DNA of 64,000 nt from Verrucomicrobiales bacterium (GCA_965657775.1 CBFHPY010000008.1:687786-751785), one strand, 5' to 3'; counted from the first letter of the stretch, positions 1,552 to 8,477 are shown. The notes: a model not told the origin generated them from the letters alone. Numbers and translations: made by a program.

Positions 1552-3756
1552 CTAGTGCTCTTCCTCAATCAGGATCCGTGTGTCGGGAACAAGTCCTTCG
1601 ACAGTCTGTGTCTTCCCCGTTGTTGGCCAGAAAACTTCAACTCGCTCCAGCGAGTCAATCGTGGCCAAGCCAAAATGAAGCTCCAGCGGATTCGCGCCGA
1701 AACTTCCTCCTGAATTCATCCATTGATACATGGATCGCTCGACTCCGCCTTCCGACACCACAACTCGGACTCGTGCCCCAACTCCGTGCGAGTTCGATTT
1801 CGTTCCCTTCAGTTTTACAGAGAGCCATTGGTGACCGGTTCCCCCCGGGTTTTCGAAGAGGGCGTCATAGAATGGGTCGCATCGGAAAGCGCCACCCATT
1901 TGTTCAAAGATGTCGAGATCACCGTCCCGATCAAAGTCCGCCATGGAGACGGCATGCCCTTTCTGAAGATGTCCAAGGCGGCTTTCGAATGTTCGGTCCA
2001 CAAACTTTCCTTTCTCATTGGAAAGCAACAAGTTGGGCACGATAGAGGAGATGTCTGGATTCCCAGTTCCCAGATACATATCTGGATAGCCGTCGTTCAT
2101 GAGATCACCAAAGTTGGATCCCATCGGAAGCATCGGAACGTCGAGGCCAACTGCTCTTTCCACTCTGAGAAAACCTCCCCTCCCGTCATTTTGAAAGAGA
2201 CGACAAATTTCGGAATCGCGTGGAAATATTCCTAGTGAATTCAGGAAGATTTTGTCCCCTGTGCCTGAGTAGTCAGAGACAAATAGATCAAGTAATCCGT
2301 CGTTGTTGTAGTCCCAGAACCAGGTGGGGAAACTACGGATCGGCTCCGCAGTTCCTGTTTGAACTGTCAGATCGGCAAAGGTTCCGTCACCGAGGTTCTT
2401 CCAGAATTGATTTCGTGCATTGATACAGGAGAGGAATAGATCAGGATACCGGTCTCCATCGTAGTCGCCCCAGACCGCTCCCTTCACGATTCCAAATGTG
2501 GTCAGACCGGCCTCTGCTGTGATGTTCGTAAATCGAGGAATGCCGTTTTCATTAAGGCCATCATTTCTAAAAAGCTGGCAGGGCGATTCCTCAGCATTGG
2601 ATTCGTTGCCTACGAAAAGATCGAGGTCACCATCCAGATCAAAATCGGCCCAATCGGATGTTTGCGAAGGATGATGCTCATCGCCAAGGCCAATGGCAAA
2701 AGTCACATCGGTAAAGCTCACAACCCCTTCCGGTCCCACCCCGTTATTTCGGAGAAGTGAATTCGGATGACGTCCCGATTCGCCGAGCCATGCTCCTCGC
2801 ATCACGTAGATATCGAGATCTCCATCGTTATCAAAGTCCACCTGCTTCAGGTTTAAACCTCCGCGAAAGTCACCTAGATTTGAATCTTCGGTAACATCTT
2901 CAAAGGTTCCGTCTCCGTTTCCACGGTAAGACTTCATCCCTTGGTCCGGTTCCCAACGGCTCACAATCAGATCAAAAATTCCATCTCCGTCGAAATCATC
3001 GGCGATCGCTCCTCCCGAGAGCCCGAAGGTATCAATGCCGGCAGAGGGGGCTACATTTTTGAATTCCGGGAACTCCGAAGAATTTTCCTCCCGATTTCCA
3101 AAGGTCATCCGCCATGACTCGGGAAATTCTTCTTGGCTTCGCCCAAGAAGCAGGAGAGTCAAATTCGCGAGCCACTTCTCCTTGTATTGAACTTGTTCCC
3201 CCGGTTCCCTTGTCACGATAGATCGCTTGAGCAGTTCCAGCGCATTCTCTGCGCCCTTCGTCTTCGTGTGAATTGCTTCGTTCCGAATTGGGAAGATACA
3301 ACTTTCTGAATTGGCACTGGCGCAACAGTTCTCATTTTCTGCCATTCTGAGATAAGCAAGAATTAGGCTGCCTTCGATTCGCCGTAGCTGCGGATTTTTC
3401 GAGAGATCTGTATCGTTGCTATGTAGGGAGCGTGCTTTCTCCAGAGTCTCGATCGCTTCGCGATTCATTCCATAACATAGATAGAAGTATCCGAGATAGC
3501 CGAGAACAGCTCCCTGTGTTTCCAGAGGAGCGTCCGTCGGCAAAGAGGCCAGTTTTTTGCGGGTATCGTCGATATCCGAGGAACTGAGATATGCATTTTC
3601 AGAGTGTACTCGCTCCTCGATGCCATCCAATTCAGCGAGCATTCTTTGATGCGAAGCTTGCGCTGCCACCTCGTAGGCGGAACGAGTTTCCGCGCTCATC
3701 ATCTGAGTGTGGATCAGTATCAGCCCCAGACTGAGAATCATGTTCAGATATTTCAT
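1552..3756 (-). CDS. CRTAC1-like FG-GAP repeat / ASPIC-UnbV domain protein
   Basis: Repeated DFDxDGDLD FG-GAP motifs; C-terminal WLSVKLKG...GARV...GGSFGANPLELHFGL ASPIC/UnbV signature; signal-peptide-like start at ATG 3756. Confidence 0.9.
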   Translation of the reverse strand: MKYLNMILSLGLILIHTQMMSAETRSAYEVAAQASHQRMLAELDGIEERVHSENAYLSSSDIDDTRKKLASLPTDAPLETQGAVLGYLGYFYLCYGMNREAIETLEKARSLHSNDTDLSKNPQLRRIEGSLILAYLRMAENENCCASANSESCIFPIRNEAIHTKTKGAENALELLKRSIVTREPGEQVQYKEKWLANLTLLLLGRSQEEFPESWRMTFGNREENSSEFPEFKNVAPSAGIDTFGLSGGAIADDFDGDGIFDLIVSRWEPDQGMKSYRGNGDGTFEDVTEDSNLGDFRGGLNLKQVDFDNDGDLDIYVMRGAWLGESGRHPNSLLRNNGVGPEGVVSFTDVTFAIGLGDEHHPSQTSDWADFDLDGDLDLFVGNESNAEESPCQLFRNDGLNENGIPRFTNITAEAGLTTFGIVKGAVWGDYDGDRYPDLFLSCINARNQFWKNLGDGTFADLTVQTGTAEPIRSFPTWFWDYNNDGLLDLFVSDYSGTGDKIFLNSLGIFPRDSEICRLFQNDGRGGFLRVERAVGLDVPMLPMGSNFGDLMNDGYPDMYLGTGNPDISSIVPNLLLSNEKGKFVDRTFESRLGHLQKGHAVSMADFDRDGDLDIFEQMGGAFRCDPFYDALFENPGGTGHQWLSVKLKGTKSNSHGVGARVRVVVSEGGVERSMYQWMNSGGSFGANPLELHFGLATIDSLERVEVFWPTTGKTQTVEGLVPDTRILIEEEH

Positions 3757-3859
3757 TTCGTCATGAGAACGAAAGCTTCTGCCTTCATTAGGGGCGTGCG
3801 TCGGCCATTCCTTGTTTCGCGTCACGACAGCCGAACGCTTTCCCACGCCCATCGTTCAA

Positions 3860-4252
3860 CTACCCTCCAGCAAACACGGGATTGAATCCCGCTTCCTCGA
3901 GGATCTCTTTAACCTGCTCTCGAAGATCACCCCGAATCTCGATACGGCCGTCTTTGACGGTGCCTCCGACTCCGCAGGTTTTTTGAATTTTTCGGGCGAG
4001 CTCCTGTTTCTCCGGTAGGCCGATTCCTTTAAAATTGGCGACCACGGTAACGACCTTTCCTCCGCGATGAGCCGTTTCTCGAATAATGTCGAGTCGACCC
4101 CGAGTCGTGTTTTTTCGATTGCGACGAGAGGTAGGTTGAGGAGGTGACGAGCTTCCCTCAGGAAGATTTGTCAGTTCAGAAAGCGCTCCGAAGGGAGTTT
4201 CGGCGAGGCTTCCTTCGTCTTCGGATTGTTTGCGCTTCTTCTTTCGGCTCAT
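3860..4252 (-). CDS. yciH: Translation initiation factor SUI1/YciH family
   Basis: RGGKVVTVV...LARKIQKTCGVGGTVKDGRIEIRGDLRE SUI1 motif; probable ATG at 4252. Confidence 0.88.
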   Translation of the reverse strand: MSRKKKRKQSEDEGSLAETPFGALSELTNLPEGSSSPPQPTSRRNRKNTTRGRLDIIRETAHRGGKVVTVVANFKGIGLPEKQELARKIQKTCGVGGTVKDGRIEIRGDLREQVKEILEEAGFNPVFAGG

Positions 4253-4558
4253 CGAAAGAAATGAATCACAGTTTCCGGGGCTCTGCATCCTACGAATCTC
4301 CGGGCTACTCACGGAGAGATAATTCTGGTTTCGAAGGAGAGTCGCTGATTCACCAGAAGGCTCGGAAGAAATCGTGCGCTTTTGCTGAAGTTCTTATAAT
4401 TTCATGATAAAAGAGATTCTAAACAAGGTAAGCTCCACGCGTAACTCTGAGGAATTCACTTCGCGAACATCATGGCCCGCCACCCGAGCCGCAGGATGCG
4501 AATCAGGAGGAGCAGTCAAAAGGGAGTCGAAGTACAGAAAGCGAAATAGGGATTCCAC

Positions 4559-5800
4559 CTACTTCTGTGCCCTCTTCGCAGCGGCTTCCCGAAGCTTATC
4601 CTTCTTGCTCTTACGGCGGCCTTTGATTCCACCGGTCGACAGCGCGGGTATGGGGGCTACCTCAGTGGGTTCGAATCCCTCGACCTGCTCGCGAGGGAGA
4701 TTCAGATCATTGCGTTTTTCGATCAGGCGGAAGTGAGCATCGCTTTCTGCGGTAACGAAACTGATCGCGACACCAGCTTCGCCGGCTCGCCCGGTGCGGC
4801 CAATGCGGTGGATGTAGTCATCGGCGGAGCGAGGTAGGTCGTAGTTTACGACGACAGGGAGCAGGGCGATGTCCAGACCGCGAGCGGCGAGGTCGGTCGC
4901 GACGACCACCTGAAGCTGACCGCTTTTAAAATCTGAAAGCACGTCTGTCCGTGCGCCCTGGCTAAGGTCTCCGTGAAACGCGAGAGCGCGAATGCCATTT
5001 CTTCGTAGTTTCGTGGCCACGTGTTCGGCAGTGAATTGTCTGGCAACAAAGACGAGAACTCGAGTCCACTCTCCGGAACTCATGAGCTGGCGCAGCAAAG
5101 GAGTGCGTTTGTCAGTGTCGACGCGGATCGCTCGTTGCTTGATGTCCGGTGACTCATCCGGCGTGTCTGCAATTTCAATGCGAGCGGGTTCGTTCATCCA
5201 CTCCTTTGCCAGAGCCTTCACGCTCTTGGGGAATGTGGCGGAGAAAAGTAAATTCTGGCGACGTGATGGAAGAAGAGCAAGAATGCGTTTCAAATCTTCT
5301 GAAAAACCCAGATCGAGCAATCGGTCAGCCTCATCGAGGACAAGTGAGCTGACCTCGGTGAGTTGCAAGGCGTTGCGGTCAACGAGGTCGAGAAGCCGAC
5401 CTGGAGTAGCGACCACGAAATCGGCGCCACCGCGCAAGGCCATCATTTGTGGATTGATCGAAACTCCGCCGACCGCGCTCACGACCTTGATGCGCCGCGG
5501 GAGATGCACCGAACAGTCCTGAACGACTTGCCTGACTTGTGCCGCCAGCTCTCGAGTTGGGACGAGAATCAGTGTGCTGAGCTTTCGTTTGCGCGATGAG
5601 CCTCGATCGTCCGAAAGCCGTCTTTGAAGAAGGGGAAGGACGAAGGCTGTCGTCTTTCCCGAACCGGTCGGGGCAGTGGCCAGTAGATCACCTCCGGCAA
5701 GGATAGTGGGAATAGCTTCCAGCTGTACACTCGTCGGCGATGGGTAGTGGCTGACCGCGTGAAGCAGCGGCTCAGACAGTTCGAATGTAGAGAGAGGCAT
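4559..5800 (-). CDS. DEAD-box RNA helicase (RhlE-like)
   Basis: Motifs APTGSGKT, PTRELAAQ, TPGRLLD, DEAD, SAT and HRIGRTGRAG all present. Confidence 0.95.
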   Translation of the reverse strand: MPLSTFELSEPLLHAVSHYPSPTSVQLEAIPTILAGGDLLATAPTGSGKTTAFVLPLLQRRLSDDRGSSRKRKLSTLILVPTRELAAQVRQVVQDCSVHLPRRIKVVSAVGGVSINPQMMALRGGADFVVATPGRLLDLVDRNALQLTEVSSLVLDEADRLLDLGFSEDLKRILALLPSRRQNLLFSATFPKSVKALAKEWMNEPARIEIADTPDESPDIKQRAIRVDTDKRTPLLRQLMSSGEWTRVLVFVARQFTAEHVATKLRRNGIRALAFHGDLSQGARTDVLSDFKSGQLQVVVATDLAARGLDIALLPVVVNYDLPRSADDYIHRIGRTGRAGEAGVAISFVTAESDAHFRLIEKRNDLNLPREQVEGFEPTEVAPIPALSTGGIKGRRKSKKDKLREAAAKRAQK

Positions 5801-5835
5801 TCCGGAATCGTAGTCCTAAAAGTCCCTCGAGGCGA

Positions 5836-6951
5836 ATGCTTGCCTTCCTACTCCATGACTCGGGTCTTCTTAAGGCCCTGGAGAAAGGGAAGACCGGAGA
5901 GTTGTCTTCGTTTGTCCTGACGCCGAATGTTCAGCCGTCGATGCGTCCGGTGGGGGGACCCGTGAAGGACTGGAAGATTCTCGAAGCGATTGATTTCCCA
6001 TCTCTGGCTTGTGGTCTCGATTTGTATCCTGATGATCTCGGTTGGTTCACGACCCGTTCTCGAAAAAAGGAGCACTACCACTATCGCTGGCACAAGAAAG
6101 GAGGCGAGCGAACCCCTCGCCTCATCGAAATTCCCAAGTCGTCGTTGAAGCAGACTCAGCGGACGGTGCTGGAAAAGATTTTTTCACCGATGACGACCCA
6201 TGAGGCTTCCTGTGGATTTCAAGTGGGCAAGTCTGTCTTTGATTTTGTCCGTCCGCACTGCGGACAGAAGATGGTACTGAAACTCGATCTGGAAGATTTT
6301 TTTCCAGGAATCACCTCGGCGCGGATCATCCGGCTTTTTTTGACAGTGGGATACCCGGAATACGTCGCCGACTTCTTGACTCGGCTTTGCACCAACCGAG
6401 TTCCTGAACTAACCCTTGAGGAAGTGAACTTGTCAGCGTCGGCTCGAAGTCGATTTGAAAAATCTCACTTACCCCAAGGCGCTCCGAGTTCACCTGCTCT
6501 TGCCAACTTGTGTGCCTTTCGGTTGGACTGCCGTCTCGCCGGTCTCGCTCGCTCCGTCGGTGTTCAATATACACGCTATGCGGACGACCTGCTCTTCAGC
6601 GGTGGCGAGGGTTTTTCGCGCTGTGTCGGGCGATTCTATGGAGCGGTTTTGCGAATCCTGATCACGGAGGAGTTTCGAGTCAATCTGCGGAAGACCCGTC
6701 TTATGCCATCAAGCCAGCGCCAAATGGCTGCCGGTCTGATCCTGAACGAAAAACCGAATGTGGCTCGTCGGGAATACGACCAACTCAAAGCGATTCTACA
6801 AAACTGTCGTCAACATGACTGGCAATCGCAGAATCGGGAGAAACAATCCGAATTTCCTGCGCACCTCGCCGGAAGGATAAAGTGGGTCGCTGCTTCGAAT
6901 CCGAATCGGGGCAGAGAACTCAGCGAGGAGTTTGCGAAAATCGATTGGTGA
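5836..6951 (+). CDS. Retron-like RNA-directed DNA polymerase (reverse transcriptase)
   Basis: RT motifs: RLIEIPK, KLDLEDFFPGI, LPQGAPSSPALAN, YTRYADDLLFSG (YADD at 6577-6588), KTR...QRQMAAGLILN; retron-type thumb ending GRIKWV...NPNRG...IDW. Confidence 0.9.
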   Translation: MLAFLLHDSGLLKALEKGKTGELSSFVLTPNVQPSMRPVGGPVKDWKILEAIDFPSLACGLDLYPDDLGWFTTRSRKKEHYHYRWHKKGGERTPRLIEIPKSSLKQTQRTVLEKIFSPMTTHEASCGFQVGKSVFDFVRPHCGQKMVLKLDLEDFFPGITSARIIRLFLTVGYPEYVADFLTRLCTNRVPELTLEEVNLSASARSRFEKSHLPQGAPSSPALANLCAFRLDCRLAGLARSVGVQYTRYADDLLFSGGEGFSRCVGRFYGAVLRILITEEFRVNLRKTRLMPSSQRQMAAGLILNEKPNVARREYDQLKAILQNCRQHDWQSQNREKQSEFPAHLAGRIKWVAASNPNRGRELSEEFAKIDW

Positions 6952-6962
6952 ATGAATTCGAA

Positions 6963-7313
6963 TCAGGACCAGTCTTCCTCAGGATTTGCTTCCTGTAGTA
7001 ATCTGCGGCCAAAATCCACTTCGGTGTAGGATTCAGGTGAACCCTCCATTTTCGCCCCAGCCCATGCCACTTCTATCTGGACGTTGTGGTGAGGATGTTT
7101 CCCGGCGAATTCGAGCAGCGAGTTACGTTCTGGATGGGTGAGAAATGGCAAGGCTGTCGAAGCACTTGTCGCGCAGGAGAAGCGTTCTGGCTCCGGGTCC
7201 GAGAAGTATTCGTTGAGCCTTGTGATTCCAGTGTCGCGGGAAAGAGGATGGCTATCGATTTTCTCGTTCAGGAAAAGCGCAATGCATCGATCGAGGAAGG
7301 CAACTCCATCCAT
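6963..7313 (-). CDS. Hypothetical protein, possibly a fragment of a longer helical-repeat protein
   Basis: 116-aa ORF convergent with the RT, protein-like composition; bounded upstream by an in-frame TGA 8 codons before the ATG. Confidence 0.45.
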   Translation of the reverse strand: MDGVAFLDRCIALFLNEKIDSHPLSRDTGITRLNEYFSDPEPERFSCATSASTALPFLTHPERNSLLEFAGKHPHHNVQIEVAWAGAKMEGSPESYTEVDFGRRLLQEANPEEDWS

Positions 7314-7495
7314 ATCACGGCAGATCCCAATGATTCAGAAATCCGTGTCGGATCCAGAATGCGATAATCAACGCATAGAAGAGAGGGTGCGAAGTCGTCC
7401 GATCAAATAGTGATTTCTTTTCCTCACTCATATTTCCAATGGAGTGGTCAGGGAACGTCGTAACAATATTTCAGCCGGTCCCTGAAATGCCACTG

Positions 7496-7690
7496 CTAAG
7501 TCTGAGGAGGGAGGTCAATGCGCCTCCAACTGCCTTCGGGCACTTGAAGAAGCTCTTCACAGTTCGTGTATGGGCAGGGCATTTCGGTTCCGGCTTGCTC
7601 AGAAGTCGCGGAAAGTTTTCGATGGCATCGGGGGCAGATGAATTTTATCTCGTCGCTTGGCAATTTGATGTCCTCCGGTGCCGGAACCAT
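7496..7690 (-). CDS. Small zinc-ribbon protein
   Basis: IKFICPRCHRKL...AGTEMPCPYTNCEELLQVP: two Cys pairs with the spacing of PVC-type zinc ribbons. Confidence 0.6.
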   Translation of the reverse strand: MVPAPEDIKLPSDEIKFICPRCHRKLSATSEQAGTEMPCPYTNCEELLQVPEGSWRRIDLPPQT

Positions 7691-7853
7691 GAATTATTTG
7701 TCGCACTCCGGACACTCCATACCGGAGTAATTCGATCCTCCTCGCATAACATCGGGCATTCGAATCGAAGTGGCATGGTTGAGCATGGCACTCATTTCCC
7801 AGTCAGAGCGACTGGAAATCTTGAACCACCCTCATTTTCGCCTAGGATCCCGC

Positions 7854-8477
7854 ATGACTGAATCCAACATCTCTGTCTACTGCGGTGGGCTCTTTCAAAC
7901 CAATGGCTATCTTGTGCAGCAGGAAGGCAAGGTCTGGCTCTTCGACGCTCCGGAAGGAGTTGCAGATTGGATCGAATCACAGGAACTCCAACTCGATGGG
8001 TTGTTTCTTACCCATCAGCATCATGACCACGTCATCGGCGCTGGAGCGGTGGCGGAAAAATTTGGATGTCCGGCTTGGGCGTATTCGGAGCCGTCCGAGG
8101 ATTTGACGATGGCAAAACGCCTTGAGCAAATGATGGGAATTCCGTGCGAACTAGACCCCTATTCCATCGACCACCTCATCGAAGGGAAGTCTGAGCTGCC
8201 GCTCGAAGGGATCGACCTTCTGCTTTTTCATGTTCCCGGACACTCTCCGGATTCGGTCTGCTTTCAGATTAAGGACACTGATACGCTTATTGGAGGTGAT
8301 GTTCTGTTTCGCGGTGGAATAGGGCGGACTGATTTTCCACACGGCGATCATGAGCTATTGCTCTCCGGGATTCGTGAGAAGCTGTGGCCGCTTGCCGACG
8401 ACACCCAAGTTTTTCCTGGTCATGGCCCGACGACAACGATCGGAATTGAGAAAGCGACAAATCCGTTTCTCCAATAG
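7854..8477 (+). CDS. MBL-fold metallo-hydrolase (glyoxalase II/YcbL-like)
   Basis: THQHHDH metal-binding motif, PGHSPDS, GDVLF, PGHG; probable ATG at 7854. Confidence 0.9.
   Translation: MTESNISVYCGGLFQTNGYLVQQEGKVWLFDAPEGVADWIESQELQLDGLFLTHQHHDHVIGAGAVAEKFGCPAWAYSEPSEDLTMAKRLEQMMGIPCELDPYSIDHLIEGKSELPLEGIDLLLFHVPGHSPDSVCFQIKDTDTLIGGDVLFRGGIGRTDFPHGDHELLLSGIREKLWPLADDTQVFPGHGPTTTIGIEKATNPFLQ

Follow-up and report, generated by a model that had tools for sequence, protein, structure and literature searches.

Under the general definition of retron reverse transcriptases (RTs), region X sits between motifs RT2 and RT3 and the VTG of region Y lies in RT7. Conservation in the two motifs is strongest at the H of region X and the G of region Y (Mestre et al., PMC7736814). 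Stand-alone (msr-msd)-RT cassettes are found in part of clade 2 and in clade 11 (Mestre et al. 2020, PMC7736814), and clade 11 corresponds to the 'OutgroupA/B' RNA families of a recent survey (Toro-group SPIRE survey 2026, PMC13712802), in which low-confidence clade11-B candidates came mostly from Planctomycetota. Among the retrons that carry partner genes, those of Type XIII have SWIM/winged-helix and HEAT/ARM genes (PMC7736814, Table 1).

The 64-kb stretch of DNA analysed here (the window) contains an RT gene that resembles the clade 11 cassettes most closely. The best PADLOC matches of its product are the profiles of these cassettes, RT_other (2e-123, 410.9 bits) and RT_outgroup (1e-117, 391.7 bits), and its homologues, like clade 11 cassettes, consist of an RT preceded by an msr-msd-like RNA and lack a conserved partner gene. 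The lineage is present in Planctomycetota, as are the clade11-B candidates (PMC13712802); whereas clade 11 is mostly actinobacterial according to Mestre et al. (PMC7736814), this lineage is found mainly in Verrucomicrobiota and Planctomycetota. On the RT profile match we provisionally place the lineage with clade 11 / Outgroup. Typed retron RT profiles matched far more weakly (RT_XIII 1e-82, III-A 7e-73). The next-best of them belongs to Type XIII (Mx162, Mx65, Ne144, Sa163; RT clade 10), but no SWIM/winged-helix or HEAT/ARM domains lie beside the window RT, and no neighbours recur across 80 loci of its family. With the RT of Retron-Eco1 (Ec86; PDB 7V9U/7V9X) the protein shares the palm, fingers and thumb layout, the YADD and the positions of regions X and Y. 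Ec86 however has NATPH and VTG where this lineage has FVxPH and AAG, is without the ~95-aa helical N-terminal extension of the lineage, and works with an NDT effector (type II-A3).

Unlike clade 11 cassettes, the window copy is without the RNA and without the first 54 RT positions. We consider it likely that the locus is the 5'-truncated remnant of a stand-alone, effector-less retron that no longer has its RNA gene or the initial ~54 RT codons, and that the RT which is left is probably a non-functional relic.

The reverse transcriptase gene and its surroundings

The features of the locus, in window coordinates, are:

4559-5800, minus strand: DEAD-box RNA helicase, full-length, a neighbour outside the retron (Pfam DEAD and Helicase_C)
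5801-5835, no strand: junction zone, from the start codon of the helicase to the presumed RT remnant; RT frame open throughout (5791-5835)
5836-6951, plus strand: retron-type reverse transcriptase ORF, 371 aa (RVT_1, PADLOC, family HMM and Ec86 match)
5859-5899, plus strand: small inverted repeat in the first RT codons (arms 5859-5869 and 5889-5899; 11 nt, 91%), judged to be chance
6244-6258, plus strand: region X, FVRPH at the retron NAxxH position, H kept (aligned with Ec86 NATPH)
6577-6588, plus strand: catalytic YADD, RT motif 5 (read from the sequence)
6727-6735, plus strand: region Y, AAG at the retron VTG position, G kept (Ec86 alignment)

The helicase start codon, an ATG at 5800 on the minus strand, and the RT start codon, an ATG at 5836 on the plus strand, are 35 nt apart (5801-5835), and the RT frame remains open upstream of its ATG (from 5791) until a TAG at 5788-5790. 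The gap, the upstream TAG and the position of the YADD had been read in the same way in the preliminary description of this DNA. A GAGG is found 3 nt 5' of the RT ATG. The GC content of the RT is 52-54%, as compared to 50-57% in the flanks, and does not mark the gene as foreign. A scan for sigma-70 promoters returned no sites and is uninformative for the host phylum. The preliminary description had also pointed to a 7-bp hairpin within the first codons. A repeat does exist there (5859-5899), but 24 inverted repeats of this kind, itself included, occur in 2.2 kb, and the region 5780-5960, which covers the 5' coding region of the RT, folds no better than shuffled sequences (z = −0.40); we therefore attribute it to chance.

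RVT_1 is the only Pfam domain in the ORF (3e-23). The PADLOC matches to RT_other and RT_outgroup and the match to Ec86 bear out the initial view of the gene as a stand-alone retron-like RT, and 5836-6951 is a genuine retron-type RT; NCBIfam retron models were matched too, but under their cut-offs. Residues 38-371 of the ORF align to positions 142-470 of the 481 in RT_other, and the N-terminal part of both top PADLOC profiles is left unmatched. The nearest solved structure by sequence is the Ec86 RT (3e-35), with Ec86 residue 51 aligned to ORF residue 83. For a full-length homologue of 433 residues, an AlphaFold2 (AF2) model was available with a pLDDT of 93.2, and a Foldseek search with this model retrieved the Ec86, Eco2, Eco7, Ec78 and Ec83 RTs at the top (TM for Ec86 of 0.81 on Ec86 and 0.60 on the query). 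Since these matches span ~310-380 alignment columns of the 433-residue model, and since the sequence alignment with Ec86 begins only at Ec86 residue 51, the N-terminal extension of the lineage is unmatched by Ec86.

The motifs of regions X and Y had been described as deviant, with AAG in place of VTG and HEASCGF in place of NAxxH. The reading of region Y holds (6727-6735), with Ec86 SQRKVTGLVI aligned to SQRQMAAGLIL in the window. Region X had been mislocated: in the alignment with Ec86 around this region, SILNNATPHIGANFILNIDLEDFFPS stands opposite SVFDFVRPHCGQKMVLKLDLEDFFPG, and NATPH falls on FVRPH at 6244-6258. The consensus of the RT family is FVxPH in region X, where the H is invariant and N and A are replaced in all homologues, and QRQxAAGLVLNEKPN in region Y, while RYADDLLFSG is invariant across the homologue alignment. 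FVxPH and AAG are present in every aligned homologue and are therefore traits of the lineage, not decay.

The homologue family and its upstream RNA

A search of 5.8 billion proteins yielded thousands of relatives of the RT. The closest are 48-62% identical to it and nearly all 429-435 aa long; their hosts are Verrucomicrobiota, Luteolibacter and Haloferula among them. When one genome per species was scanned, 418 family loci were found, hosted by Verrucomicrobiales, Pirellulales, Gemmatales, Isosphaeraceae and a few Burkholderiales. In the genus to which the window belongs, the family is sporadic, with an RT in ~3 of 24 other genomes and none closer than ~52% identity. No orthologous truncated copy was found among relatives, either by protein search or in these 24 genomes.

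The homologues begin with a conserved N-terminus, MxxxxxxIRxLAxAxxAGxF...KPxWL...RPR, which is missing from the window copy. The family HMM aligns the window frame to profile positions 55-432 of 433; this alignment starts at about nt 5809, 5' of the ATG, with low posterior, and is confident from ~5830. In the AF2 model of the full-length homologue six N-terminal helices precede the retron RT fold, and three of them (residues 4-16, 22-33 and 39-51) are missing from the window RT. The preliminary description had anticipated ~80-100 extra N-terminal residues in homologues; extra residues do exist, although they number ~54-65. Nearly all of the short homologues also encode the N-terminus, via a non-ATG start or past a frameshift. 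The only one truly without it (L080) misses 88 residues and has kept its ncRNA, indicating that loss of the N-terminus alone need not disable a member of the family.

Genes surrounding the family are not conserved. Within ~4 kb of the RT in 80 loci, even the commonest neighbour family was present in just 7, all of them related loci, and three annotated homologue neighbourhoods were unrelated to one another. A conserved effector gene was not found in the 80 loci, nor was a fused effector domain, RVT_1 being the sole domain of the RT. The lack of a conserved neighbour agrees with PMC7736814 on stand-alone cassettes and with PMC13712802 on clade 11 'Outgroup' retrons.

The regions upstream of homologues are 78-87% identical at the nucleotide level over 76-119 nt, though the RTs themselves are only ~50-55% identical. 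Alignment of these regions revealed a conserved element of ~190 nt directly 5' of the RT in intact members, which comprises a long a1/a2 duplex (in locus L002, for example, GCGGGGAGGCCCGTGCGCCAAG pairs with GTTGGCGCGCGGTGCCTCCCCGC), the sequence CCAAGC, a variable hairpin, an invariant hairpin, and a long stem with an apical hairpin. The invariant hairpin, CCGGGGYTACCCCGG, reads CUCUCCGGGGYUACCCCGGGG in the RNA, and its eight base pairs are all invariant. RNAalifold predicted 35 pairs, 20 of which show compensatory changes, and the msd stem is supported by covariation. The element is thus laid out as msr-msd transcripts are (PMC7736814), with CCAAGC as a candidate branch site.

We built a covariance model, R1, from 24 of the loci; it describes the RNA of this lineage only. 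In 55 of 59 scanned loci R1 found the RNA, each time immediately 5' of the RT (36-178 bits), and two of the four misses are cut by contig ends. By locus id none of the 59 is in the training alignment, with L001 and L003 being the same places as training loci. The intact copy in a genome of the same genus as the window scored 118 bits.

In intact members of the lineage, a single transcript would contain the ~190-nt msr-msd RNA followed by the ~430-aa RT. If the lineage works as described retrons do, its RT would recognise this RNA in folded form and start synthesis at the 2'-OH of a branch guanosine, for which the G in the conserved CCAAGC that follows a1 is the probable candidate. The msd stem would then serve as template for multicopy single-stranded DNA (msDNA).

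Sequences absent from the window and the genome

The RNA of the family is absent from the locus. Even with filters off, the best score of R1 in the 64-kb window was 8.1 bits, and Rfam at its gathering threshold reported nothing in the window, including no group II intron. A repeat scan of 2.2 kb found no long inverted repeat of the a1/a2 kind flanking the RT. In both respects the locus is as it had first been described. The whole genome (4.75 Mb, 96% complete) gave the same picture, with a best R1 score of 11 bits and a best nhmmer hit of E = 0.14; the invariant hairpin motif occurs in it only within what looks like a 16S rRNA gene. The preliminary description had named a conserved upstream ncRNA in homologues, absent here, as the mark of a relic; this is what the covariance model shows, with the RNA detected at 55 of 59 family loci and no score above 8.1 bits in the window or 11 bits in the genome.

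The lost N-terminal segment was likewise sought across the genome and is not encoded there, all hits being at chance level. With ~60 N-terminal residues as queries, tblastn gave a best E of ~0.01-0.1, inconsistent between queries, and a profile HMM of the segment gave a best score of 14.9 bits as compared to 35-68 bits for controls. The window RT is the sole family copy and the sole RVT_1 gene in the genome, and no other RT or retron was found there. As the genome thus offers neither a template nor a primer RNA, the window RT would be unable to make msDNA. As the assembly is 96% complete, the missing RNA and N-terminus could in principle sit in unassembled sequence.

The lineage is already catalogued in the profile libraries of defence systems, and the window copy, as one decayed member of it, matters little as a finding; the features that looked deviant are either typical of the lineage or the result of a probable deletion. 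It does provide a negative control for annotation, in that an RT matching a retron profile is not a retron unless the RNA is present. The comparison with its relatives describes the ncRNA of a widespread effector-less retron lineage of Verrucomicrobiota and Planctomycetota, and the truncated copy could be used as a natural deletion mutant for the N-terminal helices in msDNA synthesis.

Origin of the truncation and state of the remaining gene

The helicase beside the RT has orthologues in genomes of the same genus (65-74% identity) that align with it from residue 1 and have no RT adjoining. About 20 nt beside the helicase ATG resemble the leaders of these orthologous helicases, and RT homology begins within the next few nt. 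The breakpoint of the deletion or rearrangement is placed in the junction zone, 5801-5835, and the RT ATG at 5836 is an internal codon of the ancestral gene.

In the two closest homologues (L005 and L006) a DEAD-box helicase lies just upstream of the RT on the same strand, and we therefore considered an inversion that would have carried the RT 5' end and the RNA to the far side of the helicase. The ORF on that side (3860-4312, minus strand) is unlike the RT N-terminus, and by its sequence looks SUI1/YciH-like. Moreover, the window helicase is only 45% identical to the RT-adjacent helicases of L005 and L006, and the true orthologue in these two genomes is located elsewhere (69-70% identity). 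The adjacency of helicase and RT is thus one between paralogues, and the inversion was rejected. A search for an empty site at the orthologous helicase loci of five other genomes found nothing syntenic beyond the helicase; with no synteny conserved in the available relatives, the ancestral arrangement cannot be reconstructed.

We infer that the simplest account is a single deletion, running from the region upstream of the helicase through the retron promoter and the ncRNA to RT codon 54. Such a rearrangement would have removed the promoter, the entire msr-msd gene and the first ~54 RT codons, which by the homologue model encode three helices of the lineage-specific N-terminal extension. The most economical event would be one deletion of roughly 450-600 bp, which would have left the remainder of the RT 35 nt away from the point where, on the opposite strand, an unrelated DEAD-box helicase begins. 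The internal ATG at 5836 would then fortuitously open a frame of 371 codons covering the entire canonical retron RT fold, in a relic that appears to have stayed free of disabling mutations so far. This account corresponds to one of the two alternatives put forward in the preliminary description, that a retron lost its 5' end and ncRNA by deletion, and matches both the missing N-terminus and the missing ncRNA.

The part of the gene that remains is well preserved. The RT core has no stops and no frameshifts, and shows no deviation from the family at the 54 columns with a conservation of 98% or more. At the 95% level it deviates at 3 of 80 columns, and 8 of 80 relatives fare as badly; at the 80% level it deviates at 17 of 141, where the median is 9.5. 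In the maximum likelihood (ML) tree, the distance of the window RT from the node that it shares with L005, L006 and L011 is 0.625, as compared to 0.40, 0.44 and 0.64 (0.642), respectively, and its branch length is thus within the range of intact members. We used conserved-column deviations and branch lengths to gauge constraint, instead of dN/dS, because the nearest relative has 62% protein identity and synonymous sites are saturated. These two measures do not discriminate decay from constraint; an intact core with an in-range branch length fits a recent deletion and continuing constraint equally well. Relaxed selection on this copy, which had been proposed as a further mark of a relic, is accordingly not demonstrated.

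The open ORF, the usable ATG with its GAGG, and the want of any positive sign of pseudogenisation all count against a relic. It is conceivable, although we regard it as improbable, that the truncated RT is still a working protein after the loss of its RNA, either exapted or using a template or primer from elsewhere. Such a protein would still cover the whole Ec86-equivalent fold (from Ec86 residue 51, ORF residue 83), with its 371-codon frame intact, its YADD and all near-invariant residues kept and its branch length unremarkable, and in L080 an RT without the N-terminal extension coexists with an ncRNA. However, retron RTs are specific for their own msr (as stated in the description of region Y; Mestre 2020, PMC7736814), and here the cognate RNA is absent genome-wide. 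The native promoter would be lost, with no sigma-70-like site found in its place by a scan that is uninformative for this phylum, and no closely related truncated copy in other genomes attests to conservation. The other alternative of the preliminary description, a non-canonical RT with its template encoded in trans, within its 5' coding region or on the opposite strand, is likewise unsupported: the genome contains neither the family ncRNA nor a second RT or retron, and the 5' coding region gives no signal of a structured RNA.

Still less probable is that the RT core was kept, and is expressed from the helicase-proximal region, for a role that is independent of RNA or differently templated. 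In that case the close, divergent arrangement of the RT and the DEAD-box RNA helicase might even have a function, and if true, this would be a natural case of a retron RT domesticated without msDNA.

We think it very unlikely that the truncation is an assembly artefact, in which the true genome carries an intact retron and the contig was mis-joined at ~5800-5835. The junction is indeed unusually tight against the helicase ATG, but the contig is 1.08 Mb long in a 13-contig assembly, neither the ncRNA nor the N-terminus turned up on another contig or at a contig end, and the helicase is whole, beginning at its residue 1.

A group II intron maturase or another, non-retron class of RT (DRT/UG, DGR), hinted at by weak sub-threshold matches to TIGR04416, Drt2 and Drt3a, is already refuted by the 39.3 bits scored against TIGR04416 (cut-off 300), by top PADLOC, PDB-sequence and fold-search matches that are all retron RTs, Ec86 among them, and by the canonical msr-msd-like RNA carried by the homologues.

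Strand layout around the RT remnant

Positions 1552-7313 of the window hold a run of minus-strand ORFs in which the retron-type reverse transcriptase (RT) remnant alone lies on the plus strand. This run and the additional ORF on the 3' side of the RT comprise the following features:

1552-3852, minus strand: ORF rich in apparent (putative) FG-GAP/ASPIC-type repeats; member of the run
3860-4312, minus strand: ORF, probably SUI1-like; member of the run
4559-5800, minus strand: DEAD-box helicase; member of the run
6963-7313, minus strand: 116-aa ORF (orf116); member of the run, flanking the RT on its 3' side
7439-7861, plus strand: 140-aa ORF, also flanking the RT on its 3' side

The helicase has kept a leader of no more than 35 nt, so its promoter must be located within the RT remnant; otherwise the helicase must be transcribed by read-through antisense to the RT from upstream of position 7313. 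The two ORFs on the 3' side (6963-7313 and 7439-7861) had no match in Pfam, PADLOC or NCBIfam, and no counterpart to either was found beside homologous retrons.

Adjacency of DEAD-box helicases and retrons

In the two closest intact homologues of the window RT, the retron is directly preceded by a DEAD-box helicase in the same orientation (L005:2090-3244 and L006:2122-3291), whereas in the window a DEAD-box helicase adjoins the RT remnant on the opposite strand. The window helicase shares 45% identity with these retron-adjacent helicases, as compared to 70% with its true orthologue, which is located elsewhere; the window helicase and those adjacent to L005 and L006 are paralogues. The recurrent adjacency is either a coincidence or an unexplained preference.

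Variation among homologous loci

The upstream regions of two homologous loci, L010 and L057, gave no match to the covariance model of the family msr-msd RNA (ncRNA), even with filters off. Both loci encode full-length RTs of the family, and they may carry a divergent second RNA type. A look-alike hairpin, CGGGGGCAATCCCGGG, is present in L010.

In most loci examined the ncRNA ends roughly 5-25 nt ahead of the RT start, as compared to ~310 nt in L013 (L013:3334-3833, Verrucomicrobiae MAG; ncRNA score 167 bits), and this larger gap suggests that an insertion separates the ncRNA from the RT in L013.

Two further homologues differ at the RT N-terminus. In L080 (L080:571-1852, Pirellulales MAG) the RT starts at position 89 of the family profile, with the family ncRNA directly 5' of it (92.8 bits). 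This sole homologue to pair the ncRNA with an RT begun at that position is a natural RT that lacks the N-terminal extension and retains the ncRNA. In L070 the N-terminus is encoded in a different frame, the result of a frameshift or a sequencing error.
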